A DNA stretch of 64,000 nt, taken from contig JAYOTF010000001.1 of assembly GCA_038150265.1 (NCBI GenBank), positions 3,071 through 67,070 of the forward strand. Reading direction: 5' to 3'. The notes under the pieces were generated by a model. It saw only the letters and a program-made list of their open reading frames with translations, had not been told where the DNA came from and did not search any database. The DNA comes from Deltaproteobacteria bacterium. GTDB taxonomy: Bacteria; SAR324; NAC60-12. Every line of letters begins with the position of its first letter. Position 1 is the first letter of the stretch. The translations under genes and the position numbers were made by a program. Of the stretch, positions 20,656 to 63,482 are shown one piece after another.

Positions 20656-23283
20656 TCAGCTGAGGCGCTGCTGAGCCAGTTCCGGAGCCTGCTTGAGGAC
20701 CTCCGGGAGCTTGTCGACGGCTTTGATGCCGGCTTGTGCCATCTGCGGCTTGCCGCCGCCTCGTCCATCAGCCAAAGCGGCCACGGCATTGACCAGGTCT
20801 CCCGCCTTGAGGCCCTGCTTGACGAGGTCATCGGTCACCACACAAATCAGGGCGCCCTTGCCGTCCAGCGTCACTCCCAGCCAGGCAATGCCAGACCCCA
20901 GCTGCTCGCGGATGCTGCTTCCCAGGTCCCGGAAGGTCTCCATTGAGTCCACATCGACCATCTCGGCCAGCACCTTCACCCCCGCAATCTCCTGAGCCCG
21001 TTCCAGCAGGCTTCCGAGGTTGCCCCGCGCGGCTTCCTTGCGCAACTGCTGCAGCTCGCGCTCCAGCTGACGCTTTTCCTCCATCAGCTTCTCGACAGAA
21101 GGCGCAATCTGCTCTTCCGGAAGATTCAGGAGCTGACGCAGGTTGCCCACGACCTTCCCCTGATGCCGGGAAAGCGTCTCGGCCTGCTCCCCGGTGACTG
21201 CCGTGATGCGGCGCACACCGGCGGCAATGGCGCCTTCGGACGTGATTCGGAACTGCCCGATCTGCCCGGTGGCCTGCACGTGGCAGCCGCCACACAGCTC
21301 CCGGGAAAACGTTCCCACTTCCACCACGCGCACAACGTCGCCGTACTTCTCGCCAAACATGGCCTTGATGCCGGAGTCAATCGCTTGCTGGTACGGGGAC
21401 TCGAAGATGTGCGACGCAATGTTTTCCCGGATTTTTTGATTGACGATACGCTCAATCGTTTCGAGCTGATCGTCGCTGACCTTCTCAAAGTGCGTGAAGT
21501 CAAAACGCAGGTACTCCGGGTGGACAATGGAGCCCGCCTGGCTGATGTGGTCCCCGAGCACTTCCTGCATGGCGGCATACATCAGGTGGGTGGCGGTGTG
21601 GTTGTTCGTTGCCTGAATCCGGGCGTCTTGATTGATCACGGCACGCGCTGGAGACGCGTCCGGAGTGCCGCCACCGGTGCAGATGTGAACAATGGCGTCG
21701 CCCTGCTTCTGCACATCCACGACCGTCCAGGCACGCTCGCCCTGGGTGATGGTGCCCCGGTCGGCCACCTGACCTCCGGACTCGGCATAAAAGGGCGTCT
21801 GGTCGAGGATCAGCATCCAGCGCTCGTCGGCGTCTTGCGTGTAACGGCGGATGGTCACGTCGGCTTCAAACTCGCTGTAGCCGATGAAGCGCGAGTCCAC
21901 CCCGGGGGTGACCTCGGTCCACTTCTCCAGCGTCAGCTTGAACTTCCCGGCCTCGCGGGCACGGGTCCGCTGTGCGTCCATGTGCTGCTCAAACCCCGCT
22001 TCATCGACAGACAGCTGACGCTCCTCACACATCAGGCGGGTCAGGTCCACCGGAAAGCCATAGGTGTCGTAGAGCTTGAATGCATCTTCGCCTGAAAGCG
22101 TCTGGGATTTCCGTGTTTCCGGAGTGGCGACCATCTGCTCGAAGATCTCCAGCCCCCGATCCAACGTGTGCCCAAAGCTCGTTTCCTCCGACTCAATCAC
22201 GCCCATCACATGGAGCTGCTGCGACTGAATCTCCGGGAACGCCTCGCCCATGACGTCTGCCAGCGTTGGGACCAGCTTGTAGATGAACGGCTCATGCATG
22301 CCCAGCACGCGACCAAAGCGAGTGGCTCGCCGGAGCATGCGGCGGAGGACGTATCCCCGCCCCTCGTTTGAGGGAATTGCTCCATCGGCGACCGCAAAGC
22401 TGACCGCCCGGAGGTGGTCGGCAATCACTCGGAAGGCCACCCCCACTTCACCGCCCGAATCCGGAACCCCGGTCACGTCGTGGATCTTTGCGAGGATCGG
22501 GGTGAAGAGGTCCGTGGCATAATTCGAATCCACCCCCTGCAGCACCCGGCAAACGCGCTCCAGGCCCATTCCGGTGTCCACGTGTTTGGCCGGAAGCGGC
22601 TCCAGGTGCCCGTCCGGGAAGCGCTGGAACTGCATGAAGACGAGGTTCCACAGCTCCACAAAGCGCCAGCAGCCGTCTTGATTGACGCGGCACTCGTGCT
22701 GTTCCGAAAGCGGGCAGGTGCCCTCACCGAGGTCGATGTGCAGCTCGGAGCATGGACCACAGGGGCCGACGTCTCCCATTTCCCAAAAGTTGTCCTTCTT
22801 GTCAAAGCGCTGCACCTGATCCGGGTTGATCTCGGTCACCTGCTTCCACAGGTTCTCGGCTTCTTCATCCGGAGGAACGCCGTCGCCGCCTTCAAAGACA
22901 GTGGCCCACAGCTTGTCCTTCGGCAGGCCCCAGACCTGGGTCGACAGCTCCCAGGCCCAGCGGATGGCGTCTTCCTTGAAGTAGTCGCCGAACGACCAGT
23001 TCCCCAGCATCTCGAAGAAGGTGTGGTGGTAGTTGTCTCGCCCGACGTCTTCGAGGTCATTGTGCTTGCCAGAAGCCCGGATGCACTTCTGCGAGTTGGC
23101 CGCGCGGTTGTAGTCGCGCTTGCCGGTGCCGAGGAAGATGTCCTTGAACTGCGCCATTCCGGAGTTGGTGAAGAGCAGGGTCGGGTCATCCTTGGGCGCA
23201 ACAGGGGCGCTCCGGACGAAGCGGTGACCGCGTTGCTCAAAGAACTCAATGAACTCTTGGCGAATCTGCTGCGACGTCTTCAT
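20656..23283 (-). CDS. alaS: alanine--tRNA ligase
   Basis: DPTLLFTNSGM, HHTFFEMLGNWSFGDYFK, DTGMGLER, editing motifs HTATH and ELCGGCH, C-terminal GGGKPQMAQAG. Confidence 0.98.
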   Translation of the reverse strand: MKTSQQIRQEFIEFFEQRGHRFVRSAPVAPKDDPTLLFTNSGMAQFKDIFLGTGKRDYNRAANSQKCIRASGKHNDLEDVGRDNYHHTFFEMLGNWSFGDYFKEDAIRWAWELSTQVWGLPKDKLWATVFEGGDGVPPDEEAENLWKQVTEINPDQVQRFDKKDNFWEMGDVGPCGPCSELHIDLGEGTCPLSEQHECRVNQDGCWRFVELWNLVFMQFQRFPDGHLEPLPAKHVDTGMGLERVCRVLQGVDSNYATDLFTPILAKIHDVTGVPDSGGEVGVAFRVIADHLRAVSFAVADGAIPSNEGRGYVLRRMLRRATRFGRVLGMHEPFIYKLVPTLADVMGEAFPEIQSQQLHVMGVIESEETSFGHTLDRGLEIFEQMVATPETRKSQTLSGEDAFKLYDTYGFPVDLTRLMCEERQLSVDEAGFEQHMDAQRTRAREAGKFKLTLEKWTEVTPGVDSRFIGYSEFEADVTIRRYTQDADERWMLILDQTPFYAESGGQVADRGTITQGERAWTVVDVQKQGDAIVHICTGGGTPDASPARAVINQDARIQATNNHTATHLMYAAMQEVLGDHISQAGSIVHPEYLRFDFTHFEKVSDDQLETIERIVNQKIRENIASHIFESPYQQAIDSGIKAMFGEKYGDVVRVVEVGTFSRELCGGCHVQATGQIGQFRITSEGAIAAGVRRITAVTGEQAETLSRHQGKVVGNLRQLLNLPEEQIAPSVEKLMEEKRQLERELQQLRKEAARGNLGSLLERAQEIAGVKVLAEMVDVDSMETFRDLGSSIREQLGSGIAWLGVTLDGKGALICVVTDDLVKQGLKAGDLVNAVAALADGRGGGKPQMAQAGIKAVDKLPEVLKQAPELAQQRLS

Positions 23284-23365: not shown

Positions 23366-23980
23366 TTAGCCGCGCGCCATGAACTCGACCACCAGGTGGT
23401 CTTCCACTTGAATCGGGATCTCTTCCCGCTCCGGGATGCGGATCAGCTTGCCGGAAAGCTGCTTGGCGTCACGCTCCACGTAGTCGAGCTTCTGCTCAAA
23501 GAACCCGAACCAGTTCTTGTAGGTCTCAACGCCCTTGCTCTTCTCGCGCAGCGTCACCACGTCTCCCGGGCGCACTTCCAGGCCGGGCTTGGCGGCCTTC
23601 TTGCCGTTGAGGAGGATGTGCCCGTGCACCACCATCTGCCGAGACGCGCGCAGGGTTCCTGCGAAGCCCATGCGGTAGACCATGTTGTCCAGACGGGTCT
23701 CCATGATCTGAATCAGGGCGATGTTGGTCTGGACCTTCGAGCGAGACGCACGGTCGTAGTAGCGGCGGAGCTGCTTCTTGCTGATGCCGTAAAACAGCTT
23801 CAGCTTCTGAGTCTCCTGCAGCTGCAGACCGAACGGGGACACCTTCTGGCGCCGGTTTGCGCCATGCTGTCCCGGACGGTTGGGCCGGCGGCTCAGGGTG
23901 AGGGCCGCACTGGGGCTCCCGATGATGTTGACCCCGAGTGCTCGACAGGCCTTATGCTTGATCGTTGATTTTCCTGGCAT
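23366..23980 (-). CDS. rpsD: 30S ribosomal protein S4 (stand-alone, no Zn-ribbon CxxC)
   Basis: PGQHG, QLQETQKLK..YG, ETRLDNMVYRMGF, ASRQMVVHGH, VVEFM. Confidence 0.95.
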   Translation of the reverse strand: MPGKSTIKHKACRALGVNIIGSPSAALTLSRRPNRPGQHGANRRQKVSPFGLQLQETQKLKLFYGISKKQLRRYYDRASRSKVQTNIALIQIMETRLDNMVYRMGFAGTLRASRQMVVHGHILLNGKKAAKPGLEVRPGDVVTLREKSKGVETYKNWFGFFEQKLDYVERDAKQLSGKLIRIPEREEIPIQVEDHLVVEFMARG

Positions 23981-24203: not shown

Positions 24204-24587
24204 CTAGGCGCGCAGGAGGGGCGCCACAGCCACCTGGAGGTCTTCCACGCTGAAGGGCTTGCCAAGGAAGGCGTTTCCACCCGCCTCCCGGACCTCATCT
24301 TCCACCTTCGTGGAGTGCTCAGCCGTGATGATCAGCACCGGAATCGTTGCAATCTCGGGCACCTGACGCAGCTGGCGGACAAACTCCACGCCGTCCATCC
24401 GGGGCATCTGCAAATCAGACACGATCAGGTCCACCTTGGACTGCTTCGCCACTTCCAACGCCTGCTCTCCATCTTCGGCCTCCAAAAAATTCTGGAACCC
24501 CAGGTCCTCAAGCATTTTGATCAGAAGGTGACGCATGAATCGGTAGTCATCAACGACCATCACAGTTGCGTCGGGAAAGCTGGGCAT
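24204..24587 (-). CDS. single-domain CheY-like response regulator
   Basis: VMVVDD, EAEDG, IVSDLQMPRMDG, IITAE, FLGKPF. Confidence 0.9.
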   Translation of the reverse strand: MPSFPDATVMVVDDYRFMRHLLIKMLEDLGFQNFLEAEDGEQALEVAKQSKVDLIVSDLQMPRMDGVEFVRQLRQVPEIATIPVLIITAEHSTKVEDEVREAGGNAFLGKPFSVEDLQVAVAPLLRA

Positions 24588-24718: not shown

Positions 24719-25279
24719 GTGTACGAAACATCTGACATCCGCAAAGGCCTCCGCATTGAAATGGACAACGAGCCTTATGCCATCATTGACTTTCAATTCG
24801 TCAAGCCCGGCAAAGGGAACGCCTTCACCCGAACCAAAATCCGGAACCTGATCACCGGCTCGGTTCTGGAACGGACCTTCAAGACGGGCGAAAAGCTGAC
24901 CCCTGCGGACATGGAAGATCGGGACATGCAGTTCCTTTACAACGACGGCAGCTTCCACTTCATGGACACCCGCAACTACGACCAGGTGGCCCTGGAAGCC
25001 GACATGGTTGGAGACGCCGCCCACTACCTGCTGGAAAACATGGAAGTCAACGTGGGCTTCTACAAGGGCCGGGCCGTCAGCCTCGTGCTTCCGAATTTTG
25101 TGAACCTCGAAGTCGTGGAAACGGCTCCGGGCGAAAAGGGCAACACCGTCACCGGTGCGTCCAAGCCGGCAACGCTCTCCACGGGCTACGAAGTGAACGT
25201 TCCGCTCTTCATCAACACAGGTGACCTGCTCCGAGTCGACACACGGACCGGAGAGTACGTTGAGCGCGTCAAGAGCTAA
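24719..25279 (+). CDS. efp: translation elongation factor P
   Basis: FQFVKPGKGNAF loop (Lys at the tip), VPLFINTGD..RVDTRTGEY; GTG start with AAGGA RBS. Confidence 0.97.
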   Translation: MYETSDIRKGLRIEMDNEPYAIIDFQFVKPGKGNAFTRTKIRNLITGSVLERTFKTGEKLTPADMEDRDMQFLYNDGSFHFMDTRNYDQVALEADMVGDAAHYLLENMEVNVGFYKGRAVSLVLPNFVNLEVVETAPGEKGNTVTGASKPATLSTGYEVNVPLFINTGDLLRVDTRTGEYVERVKS

Positions 25280-25305: not shown

Positions 25306-28300
25306 GTGCAGGCCGACAATCCGGGGGCACCCTCCGCCCCTTCCTCACCTCAAGCCCTTCAGGTCCGGCAGTGGAAGCGACTGGTCGCCCTCTACCGCCA
25401 GCTTCCTTCCAGTCCGTGGAACCCGGAGGCCCAGCAGGCGCTGCGTCAGGTCTTCAAACGCCTGCAGAGCCACCGCTTTCAGCAGCAACTCCAGTCCACC
25501 TACTCCGCTGAGGAGCAAGAGGCCCTGCAGGCTCAGATTCAGCAAGACGTGGCGGCCTACTGCACCCTCAACCAGGAACGCGTCCAGAGCCTGCTGGAAC
25601 TGGCCACCCCCGAACTCCGGACCTCGGTTCAGGAAGCCCTGACCCTGTTTCACTACAACCTCCCGGAGCTTCCGGAGCAGTTGGTGGAACGCACGGTCGG
25701 GTACGATGACGACGGGCACCCCATCATCGACTCCGGAAGCTTCCACCTCTTTCCAGAACACGCGCCGGCCGGCCTGGAGGGACGAAGCCGCTTCCTGCCT
25801 TCCCACTTCGAGGGACTCGAGCCACTGGCCACGTTTGAGCAGCGTGAGTACCCACCACTCGTCGCTCAGCCACCCACCGATCTGCGCATCAAGGCCATCA
25901 CCACCATCGGCAGCCTCGGCGGCATTGGGCACAAGCCCGACTCCGACATGGACGCCCAGGTGATCGTCAGCACCGACCCGGAGGTTTCGGCTCCGTGGAA
26001 CGACCTCGACTTCCTGCTCGCGTTCCTGGAGCAGGTCCTCAGCCAGGTCCGGACGGTCATCTTTCACCAGGTCCTCAATGACCACGAACGCGAACGCCTG
26101 CAGTCCCTCGCCCGCAAGGAGCTGGAAAAGCGTTATGCCGAAGGACTCCGCGAGGAAGAGCGACTGGTCCTCGAAAGCGTTCTGCCCAGCAGCTACCAGC
26201 ACCTGCTCGATCACCTCCTCTGGAAGGCGGCTCAGGCGCTGCGTCCCGGGCGGCTCCACGAGCTGATTGCCAACGAGCTGCAAGCCTCCCTGCGTCGGTA
26301 CCCGGACTTTGCCCCGTTGTTTGCACCCGTGGTCTGTGTGCTCTTCCCCTTCCTCACCAAGTGGAACCCCAGCGACTTCCAGGCCAATTGCTTTCCGTTT
26401 GCCGGCACCCTGGCGCACCCCAAGGTGCTTCCGGTGCAGCTGGCCCGCTTTTATCGCCGCAACACCCTGGGGTCGAAGCAGTCCCTGAGGCTGCTTTCAG
26501 AGTGGGCTGAGCAGCAAGGGCAGCTGCTGAACGAGATCCCGATGGCCGAGCAGGACGGCTTCCTCTGGGAGCACTTCAAGCAGAACCCGCAGTGGCCCTC
26601 TGTGCTCAAGCAATTCCTGGAAACCCTTTCCGAGCACCTGAGCCTTGCAGAACTCAAGGACCTCCCCTCAGGCGTTGCAGCCCTGCAGCGCCTGCTTCCG
26701 GATCATCCGCAGCTTCCGGACCTGCTTGCCGTGGCTCCCTTCCGGCAGCAGGTGGCCCAGCGCTTCCGGACCCGCATGGCCGAGCTGGTGGAGGCGCACC
26801 GCAACCAGGCCGCTCAGGGGCTTGAGGCACAAGTCGAGTACCCGCTGCACCTGAAGACTCAGCAGGTGGAGGCTTTTTTGGAAAAGAAGCACCCAGAGGT
26901 TGAGACGCACTTCTTCCGGAACCTGCTCCGCCGCATGCGAGCAGGCGAGCACACGCCGTTCCTCGTCTCGCCCGAAGGCAGCCTCGCCTACTCGCACCTG
27001 CTGAACGACTTCCTCCTCAACCCAGCCGTGATGCTCGGAGGCGTGCCTCCCCTTCCGTTTGACCTGCCGGACGACTTCCGAACCCTGGTCGCTGCCGGCG
27101 TGTTCGATGAATCGGCCTGGCAGGTTCCTGACCCGCACAATCCACGAGAACGGTGGCGCCTCAATCAGCTCCCGGACTGGGGCAGTGTTCTCATTCCCCG
27201 CGAGCTGTTCCTGGAACACATCGTCCCCATCTTCCTCCGGGAGAGCGAAAAGGTCAGCCACCGCAACCTCCCCAAGGCCCTCCTCAACTGCTGGTGGGTT
27301 GAGATGCTCTGCCTGGAAGATCGCCCCCAGCTGACCAGCCTCACACGCCTGCTCCTTCATCCGGAACAGCGCGCCTCTGCCGAAGAAGAACTCCGGGATC
27401 CGGACTCGGTCCGGCTGCTGGAAATTGAAGAGCTCTTCCCGCCGCTGGTCCGGGATCCGTGGTGGATCAAGTTTACCGAAATGCTCCTGCGTTCAGCAGA
27501 CCTGAGCACCCGGAAGGACCTGATCTTCTGCTTTGCCCAGCACATGCGCCTCAGTGATGTCATCGACGCTGAAGGGCACCCGCTCTTCATTCAGCCCGAA
27601 GAGCCCTGGCGCCGGCATGCCCTGTCCAAGTTCTATCAGCTCTTCTTCCGAGACGAGGGCTTCCGGCTGGAGCTGGCACGCTTTGCTCAGGGACGCGATG
27701 ACACCGCCTCGCAGTGGGAAGAACGCCTCAAGAACCTCTTCCTCCAGTCCCTGCGGCGGGTGGAGACTTTGATTTGCCATATCAGCAGTGAACAGGCGAC
27801 GGCTCAGGTTTCCGAGTACCTCCAGAGCTGCAGCGCCACGCCCCTGGATCATGAGGAACTGCACGCGCTCCTTGACCCACTGATGCTGCAGGTCCACCAG
27901 CGGGTGGCCATTGAAGACCGGCGCATCCTCAGCAAGATCCGACAAAAGGAGCCCCTCACACCGCTGGAGCGCCTTCAGGCCAGGCACCTGCACAGCGACT
28001 TCCTCCGGGTCCGGAAGGTCGTCCAGGAAATTGCCGATCACTTCAGCGATCTGCCCCTCAACTCCGGAAAGCTGGAGCAGCTCATTACAGGCGCCAAGGT
28101 CCGGGTTGGAGGCGACACCAACGAGAACGTCATCTTCCGTCACCACTTTGAGCGCAACTTCTCCCGGAAGCAGTTTCAGATTCCCCAGCCCATCGCCAAG
28201 AGCCTGAGCATCCCGCGTCCGGGCATTCTGATTCAGTATGCCCCGCAGGAAGGCTGCTGGAGCTTCTTCTCGCGCCTTCAGCGTCGGGATGCCGGACGGG

Positions 28301-29112
28301 ACCACACGCTGCTGATGTTTCAGGAACCGCTGGCCCAGGGCATCGCCCGCTGCGTCTTCAGCGGCTACGTCGGGTTTGGCAGCCGCAACCGCACGGCCTT
28401 CCAGAAGGATCCTTCGCCCGCCCGGGACCCACAGGCGCAGAACCCGTTTGGTCCGGATGACGTGGCGGCGCTTGCGCTTCGGCTCAAGGAAGCCTTCCCT
28501 CCGATGCGGCTCCGGCCCCGCGAGCTACTGGCGCAGCAGCACTACATCCGGGAGCTGTTTCTTGCCGGAAACGTCAACCAGCATGGCACCTGGACCCTGC
28601 TGGTTCGGGATAACCTCAGCGAGTGGTTTGCCATCGACTTCGCCATGCCCGAACCACGCGCCTCTCGACGGGAAGAGGTGCGGCGCTCGCCCCTCGCCTT
28701 TTTTGAGTGGATGAACGCCACGGCGACCCGGCAGCGTTTTCAGGAGACCCTTGCCCAACTCGCGATTCCCCTGGATGCCGACCGGCTGCAGACCTACGAA
28801 ATCTGGCTCAACCCCCGAAGCTTTGAGCTTGCGATCAACCCGGCTTACCGAGGCCTCTACCTCTCGGCCATTGCTGCCCAGATCTGGCCAGCTCAAGGAG
28901 GGCATGCCCCCTGGTCCGACCCGGCTCGCCCTCGACTCCTTGATCACTGGCGAACCTGGGGGCAGCAAGGCATTGAAGCCCACCACAAGGCCCAGGAGGA
29001 AAACCGGCGCAAGCAGCAAAAGCGCATCGCCCGCATCCGGAAGCTCAATGACGCCTACATGGAGAAAATTGCGGCCGAACTCAAGGAACGCGAGCGGGAG
29101 CGGATGCAATGA
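25306..29112 (+). CDS. divergent class I adenylate-cyclase-like nucleotidyltransferase with large insertions
   Basis: Pol-beta-type motif TIGSLGGIGHKPDSDMD plus colinear blocks resembling class I CyaA (LNQER..TLFHYNLPELP, EVETHFF, PDWG, PKALL, DPW, FCF, WRR, LQS). Compared from memory. GTG start uncertain. Confidence 0.7.
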   Translation: MQADNPGAPSAPSSPQALQVRQWKRLVALYRQLPSSPWNPEAQQALRQVFKRLQSHRFQQQLQSTYSAEEQEALQAQIQQDVAAYCTLNQERVQSLLELATPELRTSVQEALTLFHYNLPELPEQLVERTVGYDDDGHPIIDSGSFHLFPEHAPAGLEGRSRFLPSHFEGLEPLATFEQREYPPLVAQPPTDLRIKAITTIGSLGGIGHKPDSDMDAQVIVSTDPEVSAPWNDLDFLLAFLEQVLSQVRTVIFHQVLNDHERERLQSLARKELEKRYAEGLREEERLVLESVLPSSYQHLLDHLLWKAAQALRPGRLHELIANELQASLRRYPDFAPLFAPVVCVLFPFLTKWNPSDFQANCFPFAGTLAHPKVLPVQLARFYRRNTLGSKQSLRLLSEWAEQQGQLLNEIPMAEQDGFLWEHFKQNPQWPSVLKQFLETLSEHLSLAELKDLPSGVAALQRLLPDHPQLPDLLAVAPFRQQVAQRFRTRMAELVEAHRNQAAQGLEAQVEYPLHLKTQQVEAFLEKKHPEVETHFFRNLLRRMRAGEHTPFLVSPEGSLAYSHLLNDFLLNPAVMLGGVPPLPFDLPDDFRTLVAAGVFDESAWQVPDPHNPRERWRLNQLPDWGSVLIPRELFLEHIVPIFLRESEKVSHRNLPKALLNCWWVEMLCLEDRPQLTSLTRLLLHPEQRASAEEELRDPDSVRLLEIEELFPPLVRDPWWIKFTEMLLRSADLSTRKDLIFCFAQHMRLSDVIDAEGHPLFIQPEEPWRRHALSKFYQLFFRDEGFRLELARFAQGRDDTASQWEERLKNLFLQSLRRVETLICHISSEQATAQVSEYLQSCSATPLDHEELHALLDPLMLQVHQRVAIEDRRILSKIRQKEPLTPLERLQARHLHSDFLRVRKVVQEIADHFSDLPLNSGKLEQLITGAKVRVGGDTNENVIFRHHFERNFSRKQFQIPQPIAKSLSIPRPGILIQYAPQEGCWSFFSRLQRRDAGRDHTLLMFQEPLAQGIARCVFSGYVGFGSRNRTAFQKDPSPARDPQAQNPFGPDDVAALALRLKEAFPPMRLRPRELLAQQHYIRELFLAGNVNQHGTWTLLVRDNLSEWFAIDFAMPEPRASRREEVRRSPLAFFEWMNATATRQRFQETLAQLAIPLDADRLQTYEIWLNPRSFELAINPAYRGLYLSAIAAQIWPAQGGHAPWSDPARPRLLDHWRTWGQQGIEAHHKAQEENRRKQQKRIARIRKLNDAYMEKIAAELKERERERMQ

Positions 29113-30311
29113 GCGCCGCCTGGAACACCGGCCGGGTGCTGGCCATGGATCAGTCGGTGTGGCAGGTCCTGGTTGCGGATGAACTGAAACCCGTGCCCTG
29201 CGAGTTGCCGGGCGCTGAAGGTTGGGAGCCCGGAGACCTCGTCTGCTGGAACCACGCGGAAGCCCGCCTGCTCTTTCGTCCCGACGCCTTTGACGCCTCT
29301 GGAGACGCGCTCCGGTGGCGACGCCCGGCCCAGGCACCGAGTCGCATGCACCGCCTCCGGCAACGCCAGTTGCTGCTGAATCAACTCCGGAACTGGTTTG
29401 ACGCCCAGGGATTTCTGGAGATCGAGTCTCCCATCCTGGTGCCGGCCCCCAGCCCGGAGGTTCAGTTTGAACCCGTCTCCGCTGGCTCCGATTTCCTGAT
29501 CACGTCACCCGAGTTTCAGCTGAAGCGGCTCCTGGTCGGGGGCTTCGAGCAGGTCTTTGCGTTGGTCCGTTGCTTCCGCGGACAAGAGGTCAGCCCTCGG
29601 CACAATCCCGAATTCACCCTGCTCGAGTGGTACCGGGCCCACGCGTCGCTGCAGGCCATCACGGCCGATCTGGAAGCCCTGCTGACCACGCTGCGGCAGG
29701 GCCTTCCGGAACCGGCTCTGGCGCTCGAGTCCCTGGACTGGACCCGGCCGTGGCCCCGGAAGACCGTCTCTGAGGTGTTTCGGGATTTGCTGGGAATGGA
29801 GCTGGAGCCTCCGGAGGGTCCGCTGCTCACAGCCAGTGCCCTCCGGCAAGCCGCTCAGGAAGCCGGGCACCAGACGGGCCTGGAAGGCGCCGACACCTTT
29901 GAAGAGGTCTTCTTCCGGCTTTGGGATCAGCTGGAGCCTCAGCTGGGACAAGCAGCGCCCGTTTTTGTGCACGACTGGCCCCTCCCGCTGGCCAGCCTGG
30001 CCCGTCCCTGTCCGGATCATCCCGGCTTTGCCGACCGCGTGGAGCTCTACATCCGGGGACTGGAGTTGGGAAATGGCTTCGGAGAACTGACCGACTCGCA
30101 GGAGCAGCGCCGCCGCTTTCAGCAGGATCTGCAGAATCGTGTGCAGGCCGGGCGCCCGGAGGTGCCGCTGGATGAAGCCTTCCTCGAGGCGCTGGCTCAG
30201 GGCCTGCCCCCGAGCGCCGGCATGGCTGTTGGCGTGGACCGCCTCGTCATGCTCCTCACCGGAGCGCCCCACATCCGGGACGTCCTTGCCTTTGCGTGGA
30301 ACGAGCGGTAA
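29109..30311 (+). CDS. epmA: EF-P lysine aminoacylase (LysRS-like, GenX/PoxA)
   Basis: LITSPEFQLKRLL, CFR..E.SPRHNPEFTLLEWYR, GLELGNGFGELTD, GMAVGVDRL; no anticodon-binding domain; near efp. Confidence 0.92.
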   Translation: MSAAWNTGRVLAMDQSVWQVLVADELKPVPCELPGAEGWEPGDLVCWNHAEARLLFRPDAFDASGDALRWRRPAQAPSRMHRLRQRQLLLNQLRNWFDAQGFLEIESPILVPAPSPEVQFEPVSAGSDFLITSPEFQLKRLLVGGFEQVFALVRCFRGQEVSPRHNPEFTLLEWYRAHASLQAITADLEALLTTLRQGLPEPALALESLDWTRPWPRKTVSEVFRDLLGMELEPPEGPLLTASALRQAAQEAGHQTGLEGADTFEEVFFRLWDQLEPQLGQAAPVFVHDWPLPLASLARPCPDHPGFADRVELYIRGLELGNGFGELTDSQEQRRRFQQDLQNRVQAGRPEVPLDEAFLEALAQGLPPSAGMAVGVDRLVMLLTGAPHIRDVLAFAWNER

Positions 30312-30351
30312 CCTTCCTGCTTCCCGCTTTTCCTTCACGACTCCTCACAGC

Positions 30352-30963
30352 ATGACCCTCATCTCGGCCACCCTGACCCTGCTCCTCATCATGGATCCCC
30401 TTGGGAACATCCCCACGTTCCTGTCGGTCCTGAAGACCATTGAGGACGAAAAGCGACGGCGGCAGGTGCTGATCCGCGAGCTGATGCTGGCCCTGCTGGT
30501 GCTCCTGACATTTCTCTTTGCGGGAAAGTATGTGCTGCTCTGGCTGGGGCTACGCGAGGAGGCGGTCCGGATTGGAGGAGGCATTGTGCTGTTCCTCATT
30601 GCGATCCGGATGATCTTTCCACCCGTCAGTGGCGGAGTGATGGGCGAGCTTCCGGGGGGAGAGCCGTTTCTGGTGCCGCTGGCAGTCCCGATGATCGCCG
30701 GGCCGTCTTCGCTGGCGGTGCTGATTCTGCTCGGAAATTCGGAGCCTGAGCGGTGGCTGACCTGGTTGGCGGCGCTGATGATTGCGTGGGGCGTCACCAG
30801 CACCATCATGATGGGATCCACCCTGCTGTACCGGTTGCTCGGACAAAAAGGGTTGGTCGCCCTGGAGCGCCTGATGGGCATGGTGCTGGTCACCCTGGCG
30901 GTGCAGATGCTGCTGGACGGCACCGCCTCGTACCTGGGGAAGGCCTCGCTGGGGTTGCTCTGA
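30352..30963 (+). CDS. MarC-family membrane protein
   Basis: IMDPLGNIP, IGGGIVLF, VPLAVPMIAGPS, LERLMG; start set at ATG 30352. Confidence 0.9.
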   Translation: MTLISATLTLLLIMDPLGNIPTFLSVLKTIEDEKRRRQVLIRELMLALLVLLTFLFAGKYVLLWLGLREEAVRIGGGIVLFLIAIRMIFPPVSGGVMGELPGGEPFLVPLAVPMIAGPSSLAVLILLGNSEPERWLTWLAALMIAWGVTSTIMMGSTLLYRLLGQKGLVALERLMGMVLVTLAVQMLLDGTASYLGKASLGLL

Positions 30964-60896: not shown

Positions 60897-61670
60897 ATGA
60901 CGTCCATTAACAGCCTCGTAAATGCCGCTGGCGCCCTGGAGCGACAACTGGATACGGTTGCCAACAACCTGGCCAACGCCAGCACCACTGGCTTCAAGGC
61001 CGACCAAGCCGCTTTCAAGGAAGTGCTGGCCACGGTGCAGCGGGTGGCTCCTGAGTCCACTGAGGAATCCTTCCTTTCACACGAGTACCTGGACCAGTAC
61101 GTGGGCATGGACCGTTCCTCGGTGCAGGTGGATGAGATTGGCAAGGACTTCTCTGTGGGTCGCCTCCGCCAGACCGGCAACAAGCTGGACCTGGCTCTGG
61201 AAGGCACCGGGTTCTTCACCCTGGAGACGCCGCAGGGCATGCGCTACACCCGCGCCGGGAGCTTCAAGCTGGACAACGAGGGACGCATTGTCACCTTCGA
61301 AGGCAACCGGCTCATGGGCGAAAACGGCGCGATCCGGGTGAATGGCTCTCAGGTGCAGATCAGTGACGCTGGACAGGTTTCGGTAGACGGCGAGGTCGTG
61401 GACACCCTCCGGCTGACCGAGTTCCGACGCCCGCAGAACCTGCAGAAACTCGGAGGGAACCTCTATGCCCCCCTCCACCAAGACGACGTTCCCATCCCCG
61501 CTCAGAACACCGCTGTCAAGCAGGGGATGCTTGAGGACTCAAACGTGAATACGGTTTTGGAGATGACCCGAATGATCTCCGCGCAAAGGGCCTATGAATC
61601 CGTTCAGCGGGCCATGAGCAACGTAGACAAACTCAACGAACGTGCCATTTCTCTGGCACGGGTCGGCTGA
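60897..61670 (+). CDS. flgF: flagellar basal-body rod protein
   Basis: ANNLANASTTGFK, TGNKLDLAL.G.GFF, YTRAGSF, LEDSNVN; precedes flgG. Confidence 0.9.
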   Translation: MTSINSLVNAAGALERQLDTVANNLANASTTGFKADQAAFKEVLATVQRVAPESTEESFLSHEYLDQYVGMDRSSVQVDEIGKDFSVGRLRQTGNKLDLALEGTGFFTLETPQGMRYTRAGSFKLDNEGRIVTFEGNRLMGENGAIRVNGSQVQISDAGQVSVDGEVVDTLRLTEFRRPQNLQKLGGNLYAPLHQDDVPIPAQNTAVKQGMLEDSNVNTVLEMTRMISAQRAYESVQRAMSNVDKLNERAISLARVG

Positions 61671-61703
61671 ACCCTGGATGATTGATTGAGGAGATAGAAC
61701 GCC

Positions 61704-62492
61704 ATGATGCGAGCACTCTACACGGCCGCCTCCGGAATGGGCGCCCAACAGCGACACATTGACACGGTGGCCAACAACCTGGCCAACGTCAACACCACTG
61801 GCTTCAAGAAGAGCAAGGTCCACTTCCAGGACCTGCTTTATCATAACGAGCGCTCTGCTGGAGTGCCGTCCTCTCTGTCTACTCAGGTCCCCGTTGGCCT
61901 GCACGTCGGACACGGGGTGAAGTATGTGGCCACGGAAAAGGTTCACACGCAGGGGAGCGTTCAGAACACTGGAAACGACCTGGACCTGAGCATTGATGGC
62001 ATCGGGTACTTTCAGATCCTGCAGCCCAATGGCATTGTGGCCTACAGCCGCGATGGTCACTTCAACATCGACGGCCTCGGACGCCTGGTGACCAATGACG
62101 GCATGATCCTCGATCCGGAAATCAACATTCCGCAAGACACCCGGAAGATTGAGATCGGTTTCGATGGCACCGTGTCGGTTTACCTGCGTGATGAGACTCA
62201 GCCGGAAGCAATCGGCAGCATTCAGCTCGCCCGCTTCACCAATCCAGCAGGACTGACGCCAATCGGCAAGAACCTCTACATCCCGACCCCGGCATCGGGG
62301 AACCCGATTGTCGATGCCCCCGGATCCAACAGCATGGGCAAGCTCAACCAGGGCTTCCTGGAAATGTCCAACGTCTCCCTCGTTGAGGAAATGGTGGACA
62401 TGATTACGGCGCAGCGGGCCTATGAGGTCAACTCAAAAGCCATTCAGGCATCCGACGAGATGCTGCAGACCGCCAATAACCTGACCCGCTAA
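61704..62492 (+). CDS. flgG: flagellar distal rod protein
   Basis: MMRALYTAASGM.AQQ, ANNLANVNTTGFKK, FQDLLY, LEMSNV, AQRAYEVNSKAI. Confidence 0.95.
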   Translation: MMRALYTAASGMGAQQRHIDTVANNLANVNTTGFKKSKVHFQDLLYHNERSAGVPSSLSTQVPVGLHVGHGVKYVATEKVHTQGSVQNTGNDLDLSIDGIGYFQILQPNGIVAYSRDGHFNIDGLGRLVTNDGMILDPEINIPQDTRKIEIGFDGTVSVYLRDETQPEAIGSIQLARFTNPAGLTPIGKNLYIPTPASGNPIVDAPGSNSMGKLNQGFLEMSNVSLVEEMVDMITAQRAYEVNSKAIQASDEMLQTANNLTR

Positions 62493-62507
62493 CTTTAGTG
62501 AGTTGAC

Positions 62508-63482
62508 GTGATGAACCGGATGCTTCGTGCCCTTGCTCTCTTCCTGCTGATCCCTGGGGTCCTCCTTGCTCGTGAGTACACCGAGGAGCAACAGATTCGA
62601 GTCGTGTTTCAAGACTCGGCCGTTGTGGAAGGAGACGAGTACCAACTGAACGAGGTGGCCACCCTGGAGGGCATCGACTACGGTTTGATTGAGCGCTTTG
62701 GCAAAATCAAGGTCGGTCGGTCCCCACTACCAGGACGAAGCCTGACGGTGACCCGGTCGCTCATCGAATCCCGTCTGCGGGCAGCCAAGCTCGACACCAA
62801 GCGCCTCACGTACCCGAGCGGACAGTCCACCAAGGTCACTCGTGCCGCTCTGAAGATTCCGGGGGAAGACCTGGACCAGGTGGTGCTGCAGTACATTGAG
62901 GACCAGCATCCGGATGAAGAAGTGAAGCCCCGCTTGCTCTCCAAGAGCCGCGATGTCTTCCTTCCCCGTGGAGAGGTCAGCTACGAAATCAAGGAAAAGG
63001 GCACCTTCGTCAAGGAAGCCGGCTACCGGACTTATGACATTCAGCTGAGCATCAACGGTGAGCTGGAAAAGACCGTTCCGGTGCGGGTGTACCTGAAGAT
63101 GTACAAGGAAGTCTTTGTAGCCAAGGACACCATCAAGCGAGACGAGGTGATCGAAGAAGCCGACCTCATCAAGGTCCGCCGCAATGTCGACCGCCTGACT
63201 TCGACTTATGTAACCGACAAGCAGCAACTGGTGGGCAAGGTCGCCTCGCGTGCGATTGGCTCCAACCAGGTCATCTCCGGAAACAGCGTGGTCATTCCTC
63301 CGGTTGTGAAAGAGGGAGACCGGCTGCTGATCGTCTATGAAACCGAAAACCTCGTCCTCTCGGCCCAGGGGGTTTCCATGGCCAAGGGTCGAGTTGGCGA
63401 CCGAATTCCTGTCCGCAATGTGGACAGCAAGACCGTTGTGTACGCGCAGGTACGCGATAAAAACACTGTTCAGGTAAACTGA
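62508..63482 (+). CDS. flgA: flagellar P-ring formation chaperone
   Basis: Signal peptide, C-terminal SAF domain and G..GD.I.VRN..SK motif; position in the operon. Start 62508 or 62511. Confidence 0.88.
   Translation: MMNRMLRALALFLLIPGVLLAREYTEEQQIRVVFQDSAVVEGDEYQLNEVATLEGIDYGLIERFGKIKVGRSPLPGRSLTVTRSLIESRLRAAKLDTKRLTYPSGQSTKVTRAALKIPGEDLDQVVLQYIEDQHPDEEVKPRLLSKSRDVFLPRGEVSYEIKEKGTFVKEAGYRTYDIQLSINGELEKTVPVRVYLKMYKEVFVAKDTIKRDEVIEEADLIKVRRNVDRLTSTYVTDKQQLVGKVASRAIGSNQVISGNSVVIPPVVKEGDRLLIVYETENLVLSAQGVSMAKGRVGDRIPVRNVDSKTVVYAQVRDKNTVQVN

Follow-up and report, generated by a model that had tools for sequence, protein, structure and literature searches.

A large open reading frame (ORF) of 1268 codons lies between efp, which encodes elongation factor P (EF-P), and epmA, which encodes the EF-P lysine aminoacylase, on contig JAYOTF010000001.1 of a bacterium from the SAR324 lineage. 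We analyzed a window of 64,000 nt from this contig, to which all coordinates refer, and use X as the label for this ORF (positions 25306–29112, + strand). The layout agrees in every coordinate with the original prediction, which had been made from the DNA alone. The TAA stop of efp and the GTG start of X are 26 nt apart, and the TGA of X and the ATG of epmA share the letters ATGA at 29109–29112, a 4-nt overlap. From this gap and overlap, we infer that efp, X and epmA are co-transcribed. GTG 25306 is the sole ATG, GTG or TTG in frame upstream of the conserved Gln22 of X, and an identical 1268-residue protein is already present in a database record. EF-P, for which the whole genome contains a single match, shares 49% identity with its E. 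coli counterpart; in the alignment the PGKG loops coincide and Lys32 corresponds to E. coli Lys34. EpmA is 35% identical to E. coli EpmA over residues 70–398.

X carries the sequence GSLGGIGHKPDSDMD at residues 202–216 (25909–25953), which had been read as the GS...DxD motif of the Pol-β superfamily. This reading is borne out, since Gly202, Ser203, Asp214 and Asp216 are invariant in all 24 aligned family members, and the motif lies within the sole Pfam match of X, to PF12633 (Adenyl_cycl_N; 37 bits versus a cut-off of 27); separate pieces of X scanned at E ≤ 10 matched no further family. AlphaFold2 models, built on 20-row alignments, were obtained for residues 60–850 (model numbering offset by +59; predicted local distance difference test (pLDDT) 85.1, predicted template modelling score 0.82) and for residues 840–1268 (offset +839; pLDDT 84.7). 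They support a Pol-β-type fold around the motif, and indicate that X is a Pol-β-type nucleotidyltransferase with a KNTase-C/HEPN-like helical domain, in which the catalytic core is split by a helical insert (Table 1).

In the model of residues 60–850, the two long N-terminal helices are followed by a β-hairpin, which precedes the GS/DxD unit. The insert of about 300 residues is weakly conserved; residues ∼352–493 are absent from the copies of one genus (g12) of the window's family, which match only residues 24–351 and 494–1255. In the second half of the core, Glu533, His535, Phe537 and Asn539 are invariant, and Glu533, which heads model strand 475–481, is a candidate third carboxylate. The following stretch, residues 550–571 (HTPFLVSPEGS...LNDFLLNP), is mostly invariant and has the highest conservation in the family after the motif. 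The corresponding model residues, 491–512, are the sole part of the catalytic region with a pLDDT below 50, and this stretch may be a mobile active-site lid. The charged helix that ends the protein is present only in some family members, its alignment columns (1401–1442) being occupied in roughly half of the sequences. Arg645 and His652, in an R-x6-H arrangement, were considered as a HEPN RNase active site and rejected; they sit where the helical domain begins and are missing in the ∼950-residue relatives described below.

Table 1. Genes of the efp-X-epmA region and predicted parts of X, with window coordinates
Feature	Position	Strand	Basis or remark
Single-domain CheY-like response regulator, divergent from efp	24204–24587	-	PF00072, 98.8 bits
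efp (EF-P, 186 aa)	24719–25279	+	TIGR00038, 251 bits versus cut-off 185.8
X, class-I-adenylate-cyclase-like nucleotidyltransferase, 1268 aa, GTG start	25306–29112	+	ORF and translation; PF12633; full-length homologues
X, N-terminal long-helix pair, aa 68–116	25507–25653	+	Model helices 9–40 and 43–57; N89, R92 and L96 invariant
X, nucleotidyltransferase core, first half, aa 174–221: helix, strand, GS loop, DxD strand	25825–25968	+	Model strands 136–141 and 156–162; PF12633 positions 85–120
X, all-helical insert of ∼300 aa, aa 233–528, splitting the catalytic core	26002–26889	+	Model helices 174–469
X, catalytic core, second half, aa 534–618	26905–27159	+	Model strands 475–481, 517–520, 547–550 and 553–559
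X, KNTase-C/HEPN-like helical domain, aa 632–830	27199–27795	+	Holds invariant block R645–M667 and DPWW 717–720
X, C-terminal α/β domain, aa ∼950–1200	28153–28905	+	Model pLDDT 84.7; fold or family not recognized
X, C-terminal long charged helix, aa 1215–1267	28948–29109	+	Model helix 376–428
epmA (EF-P lysine aminoacylase, 400 aa)	29109–30311	+	TIGR00462, 307.8 bits versus cut-off 286.9
MarC-family membrane protein ORF	30139–30963	+	PF01914, 167.9 bits, match from ORF residue 74

Foldseek searches of the PDB with both models gave no match at E ≤ 0.001, the 791-residue model retrieving helical-repeat proteins alone. Structural alignment placed 225 of the 257 residues of 7uy4_B across model residues 39–764 of X. 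Aminoglycoside nucleotidyltransferase (ANT) and minimal nucleotidyltransferase (MNT) structures align across the insert segment, and the alignments with HEPN and ANT C-terminal domains fall on model residues 568–779. The C-terminal α/β domain has no Pfam match at E ≤ 10, and an ESM Atlas query with residues 930–1215 returned no usable match. Since the VIA-align rows on the C-terminal model span only model residues 2–93, which are helices, and the α/β domain is barely covered by these searches, we do not call it a new fold. Hsp70/PPX-like Foldseek rows for this model had probabilities of at most 0.35 and were not trusted.

Most known class I adenylate cyclases come from E. coli and related bacteria. 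X shares with E. coli CyaA the G-S-x8-10-S-D-x-D motif following a hydrophobic strand. The PF12633 match, however, spans only profile positions 85–120 of 199, corresponding to residues 188–223 of X, 36 residues around the motif. As a control, E. coli CyaA scores 277.6 bits with PF12633 over positions 2–198 and 858.7 bits with PF01295. In the ESM Atlas, all 30 feature neighbours of X are class I adenylate-cyclase clusters, the best with a score of 0.94 and 186 shared features. Profile-profile comparison of the X family with E. coli CyaA, or with a CyaA alignment that was shallow (searches with E. coli CyaA gave only relatives at 84–100% identity), aligned 40–67 columns around the motif with E values of 0.016–0.042. 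One weak collinear block joins X residues 531–605 to CyaA 148–229 (E 0.03–0.07). The further blocks that had been said to align in order with CyaA thus shrink to this one. An N-terminal helix with an N..R pattern may also be shared; it aligns to CyaA 5–50 by way of the ∼950-residue relatives, whose N-terminus matches CyaA residues 5–120 with an E value of 5.6e-4 and a probability of 30%. Both proteins are large, multidomain and cytoplasmic, with a non-catalytic C-terminal part. In contrast, CyaA has 848 residues and X has 1268, the core of X is split by its helical insert, the C-terminal domain of X is unrelated in sequence to CyaA, and E. coli cyaA lies with hemC and cyaY rather than with efp and epmA. 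Taken together, the profile matches suggest that X has a class-I-like catalytic core and stands outside the CyaA family as curated models define it. The X group is a very small, uncharacterized sister group of the class I adenylate cyclases.

The size of this group is evident from a search of 1.84 billion representative proteins with a profile of X residues 60–850, which gave 100 matches at E ≤ 0.001, 80 at 1e-10 and 47 at 1e-30. About 15 of the 100 are full-length X-type proteins, about two dozen have 860–1060 residues and the rest are fragments. Full-length homologues have 1170–1321 residues; those with names are entries for "hypothetical protein" of SAR324 cluster bacteria, together with one "Deltaproteobacteria bacterium TL4". 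X is also homologous across all of its parts to SAR324 proteins of ∼900–1050 residues (hhalign probability 96.6–99.8% per part), including their C-terminal part (99%). These ∼950-residue relatives (alignment A5; loci L035, L036, L038, L039 and L175–L194) match PF12633 at 26.6–31.3 bits. Unlike X, they lack the X-specific insert segments, are never beside efp/epmA in the loci examined, and are present throughout the phylum with several copies per genome. Literature searches on SAR324 with adenylate cyclase returned nothing related to X, and those on EpmA with adenylate cyclase and elongation factor P found no such gene by title or abstract among the papers listed. Those on the structure or catalytic residues of class I cyclases gave nothing of use. 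The PADLOC defence models gave no family at E ≤ 0.01 for X, its paralogue or one ∼950-residue relative.

The gene neighbourhoods of paralogues and relatives offer an indirect view of function. The X paralogue of this genome (1280 residues, 39% identity) is encoded at G000:C1:67474–71256 (L037:5436–9278), about 365 nt past the right end of the window, where it follows flgF/G-like genes, flgA and flgH (window 60897–63482 and on). The paralogue clade, from genera g1, g2 and g11, is located directly after flgH in seven of eight loci, the eighth having no upstream flank. A position in a flagellar cluster is typical of signalling enzymes. A conserved ORF of 408–415 residues downstream of the flagellar paralogue has no Pfam or NCBIfam match. 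In one g2 genome, the paralogue match at G035:C1:399243–402839 contains in-frame stops (two TGA and one TAA, with one TAG and one TAA in the other half), and may be a pseudogene or reflect a sequencing error.

Among five scanned loci of paralogues that are free of both efp/epmA and flagellar genes, three have neighbours of interest: a cNMP_binding-GGDEF protein (L159), a cNMP_binding histidine kinase together with a response regulator (L160), and a metallo-β-lactamase (MBL) hydrolase that exceeds the Pfam Apyc1 threshold (L161; 121 bits versus 50). A cNMP_binding-PAS-HisKA-HATPase kinase is found directly upstream of the ∼950-residue relative, on the same strand, in three of 20 loci (L181, L183 and L184); in such an apparent operon, the two proteins could form a cyclase-receptor pair. 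Three more of the 20 show the FecR arrangement described below, and the rest have housekeeping neighbours. As cNMP_binding domains are scarce, with two in this genome, their repeated adjacency in differing architectures does point, though indirectly, to cyclic-nucleotide chemistry in the superfamily. Of the two roles raised in the original prediction, a cyclase and a repurposed nucleotidyltransferase, the context of paralogues and relatives favours the nucleotide cyclase. Locus L038 has a similar arrangement of a ∼950-residue relative and a cNMP_binding sensor kinase. A different set of neighbours occurs at L175, L176 and L178 (and, similarly, L193), where an X relative of ∼915–933 residues has a FecR-domain protein upstream and a protein of ∼500 residues without Pfam or NCBIfam match downstream, in an apparent operon.

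Our best explanation, to which we give about an even chance, is that X is a lineage-restricted, enlarged class-I-like nucleotide cyclase co-expressed with efp and epmA. The invariant Gly202-Ser203 loop and Asp214/Asp216 would bind a nucleoside triphosphate (NTP) with Mg2+, with Glu533 as the likely third carboxylate, and the enzyme would cyclize the NTP to a 3′,5′-cyclic nucleotide, most likely cyclic AMP. The helical domain that follows the Pol-β-fold core would be substrate-binding, while the ∼300-residue insert, the C-terminal α/β domain and the terminal helix may serve as regulatory or docking modules. X would be the central gene of one efp-X-epmA transcript, so that its dose would follow that of EF-P and EpmA.

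Several observations weigh against a cyclase. Of the class I profiles proposed as a check, PF12633 is matched, but PF01295 is not, either by whole X (E ≤ 0.01) or by residues 500–850 or 840–1268 (E ≤ 10), nor was PF01295 found in a six-frame search of the whole genome; the NCBIfam class I equivalog NF006981 scores 20 bits on X versus a cut-off of 802. The ESM Atlas recognition value is 1705, below the 2300 reached by 91 of 100 proteins of known families, and the tool thus grades the class I match of X as weak evidence. Profile-profile similarity to CyaA outside the motif is not significant, and the search with X residues 60–850 reached no canonical cyclase among the 1.84 billion representatives. 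Where CyaA has a Trp after DxD (SDLDIW), a residue that we take to be important in CyaA, the X family has an invariant Gln. The nearest solved structures are nucleoside monophosphate (NMP) transferases rather than cyclases; sequence searches of the PDB with X and with E. coli CyaA gave no match, so no class I cyclase structure was found there that could have matched X. The gene context has its own weak points. The efp-linked copies of X have no cNMP-related neighbour, and the genome, when searched for other cyclases, was found to hold eight class III cyclase domains and only two cNMP_binding proteins. The MBL hydrolase of L161 scores 28 bits versus a cut-off of 400 on the NCBIfam cyclic-nucleotide phosphodiesterase model and looks partly RNase-Z-like.

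The window's family (45 genomes including this one, in 12 genera) was surveyed by comparing contig positions of X and epmA and their loci. Homologues of X share the efp/epmA linkage in 24 of the 45 genomes, from nine of the 12 genera. The order is efp-X-epmA in 18 genomes (g1, three; g10, nine; g11, three; g12, three) and X-efp-epmA in six (two in g5, and one each in g6, g7, g8 and g9). X is unlinked in the other three genera, g2 (18 genomes), g3 (two) and g4 (one). In g2, 13 of the 18 genomes hold only the paralogue type, on another contig, and five, which are 51–74% complete, have no match; the two g3 genomes have no X and no EpmA above the cut-off. Outside the family, efp and epmA are adjacent and X is absent at all 12 loci examined, and an efp-epmA pair with no gene in between is the usual arrangement in the phylum.

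A maximum-likelihood tree (LG+G4, quick search, support from the Shimodaira-Hasegawa-like approximate likelihood ratio test) was calculated from 45 X sequences of at least 1100 residues and four outgroup sequences, leaving out the partial copies L027, L028 and L030 and three loci where the motif filter gave no ORF. Linked copies branch off deep in the tree, in succession for g1, g12, g11 and g10, with support of 80–100, and 15 unlinked copies (g1, g2, g11 and g12) form one clade nested among the linked ones with support of 100. The root is placed at the midpoint, which coincides with the long outgroup branch, and is insecure. Under either plausible rooting, however, all linked copies appear to descend from one linked ancestor, and the linkage consequently counts as one origin rather than 24. 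The efp-X-epmA cluster appears to date back as far as the X family itself. Judged by the tree and by sequence divergence, the linkage itself appears old, having outlasted one reordering and the divergence of X to 34–53% identity.

The placement of X could nevertheless be a historical accident, in which a signalling enzyme came to lie beside efp-epmA with no functional tie to EF-P. We regard this as possible but clearly on the less probable side, a judgement kept separate from those on chemistry. The single ancestral origin agrees with it, as the 24 linked genomes are not independent, and so does the 12-locus comparison, in which efp-epmA adjacency predates X. The tie is also breakable: g2 has no linked copy, free duplicates and paralogues occur elsewhere, and the linked or free label requires four to five changes on the tree. 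On the other hand, the three genes have been kept together through the reordering and the divergence of X, and the junctions are tight in this genome.

With respect to chemistry, X could instead be an NMP transferase of the GlnE/DrrA/ANT type, acting on a small molecule or on a protein, which might be EF-P, EpmA or a further component of translation; this would account for its position in the efp-epmA cluster. Such enzymes have, like X, a helical substrate-binding domain after the nucleotidyltransferase domain, in line with the structural neighbours noted above. We consider this unlikely. X has no match to NTP_transf_2, GlnE, GlnD and similar models in Pfam or NCBIfam at E ≤ 0.01, but does match the cyclase N-domain. 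The ANT(3″)(9)/AAD(9), ANT(4′) and MNT-HEPN enzymes are 11–15% identical to X with no family match by sequence; they have ∼100–260 residues and transfer an NMP to a substrate hydroxyl, while X is five times their size and has an insert in its core. The paralogues and ∼950-residue relatives are found beside genes for cNMP receptors and flagellar proteins rather than beside translation genes. Moreover, the 18 g2 genomes keep efp-epmA without a linked X, as do the 12 loci outside the family.

A more specific proposal is that X is a dedicated partner of EF-P and EpmA, either nucleotidylating one of them or signalling, by way of a nucleotide, the modification state of EF-P or the pausing of ribosomes, in a lineage mostly without EpmB. 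We hold this to be improbable. The action on EF-P or EpmA put forward in the original prediction found no support. A complex prediction for X residues 60–850 and EF-P (score 0.00, mark 0.32) is evidence neither way. The idea that X is a polyproline client dependent on EF-P was dropped because the PP pairs of X are not conserved in the consensus, as judged from the alignment by eye.

The EF-P modification pathway of this lineage is atypical. As in the described EpmA/EpmB/EpmC β-lysylation system, efp with its target lysine is adjacent to an epmA gene that exceeds the NCBIfam cut-off. The locus differs in having a 1268-residue nucleotidyltransferase foreign to the described pathway between these genes, and an EpmA with an additional N-terminus of ∼70 residues (residues 1–70, 29109–29320) that E. 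coli EpmA lacks. EpmB was not found. The epmB gene had been reported as absent from the window, and it was not found in the whole genome (97.8% complete) by three queries, the best TIGR03821 score being 25.7 bits versus a cut-off of 369.3, and the E. coli EpmB protein and PF12544 giving no match. Neither synteny, nor this search, nor the modelled fold, the testable points at which the original prediction could have failed, spoke against it. The EpmB model matches at E ≤ 1e-20 in 7 of the 44 other genomes of the window's family, compared to 15 of 19 in f2 and 16 of 19 in f7; its cut-off is exceeded in only 4 of 88 phylum genomes, and that of EpmA in 58 of 88. EpmA without an EpmB/KamA-type aminomutase is thus the rule in the window's family, 37 of the 44 related genomes having no match at that level. 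Open frames around the EpmA matches have ∼370–520 residues in this family and f2, and ∼300–345 residues in most f4, f6 and f7 loci.

The scarcity of EpmB could suggest that X compensates for it, by providing or activating the moiety that EpmA puts on Lys32 of EF-P or by completing the pathway in some other way. EpmA, as a class II synthetase paralogue, makes its own aminoacyl-adenylate, and we know of no route from a Pol-β nucleotidyltransferase to a β-amino acid. In a 2010 survey, just 2 of 725 genomes had yjeA but lacked yjeK (PMC2821294). Compensation by X is very improbable, since linked X and KamA-like genes do not have complementary distributions (neither in g2, both in g5, g6, g8 and g9), and the g2 genomes, which keep efp-epmA without a linked X or an EpmB/KamA gene, argue against X being required for, or replacing, the EpmB step.

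X is thus an unexpected, long-kept member of the efp-epmA cluster in a lineage with an atypical EF-P modification pathway. It belongs to an uncharacterized and very rare group with an insert-split core, whose paralogues are tied to cNMP-binding kinases and to a flagellar basal-body cluster. If the tie to efp and epmA is functional, nucleotide signalling or protein nucleotidylation would be linked to EF-P, and X could help to establish what EpmA attaches when β-lysine synthesis is absent. An X that is indeed wired to EF-P would add a component to EF-P biology and give class-I-like cyclases a novel output. Without a functional tie, X would still be a tractable new cyclase-like family.

The flanking genes bear on the extent of the putative transcription unit. 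The nearest genes upstream of efp, which include alaS, rpsD and the CheY-like response regulator (20656–23283, 23366–23980 and 24204–24587), are all on the - strand, so efp opens the + strand run. A simple promoter and terminator scan gave nothing above chance, with five terminator-like sites found versus 6.6 expected. The top NCBIfam match of the response regulator is CheY, at 83.6 bits, under the cut-off of 189. At the other end, the MarC-family ORF probably starts later than 30139, and may be the last gene of the efp-X-epmA unit.

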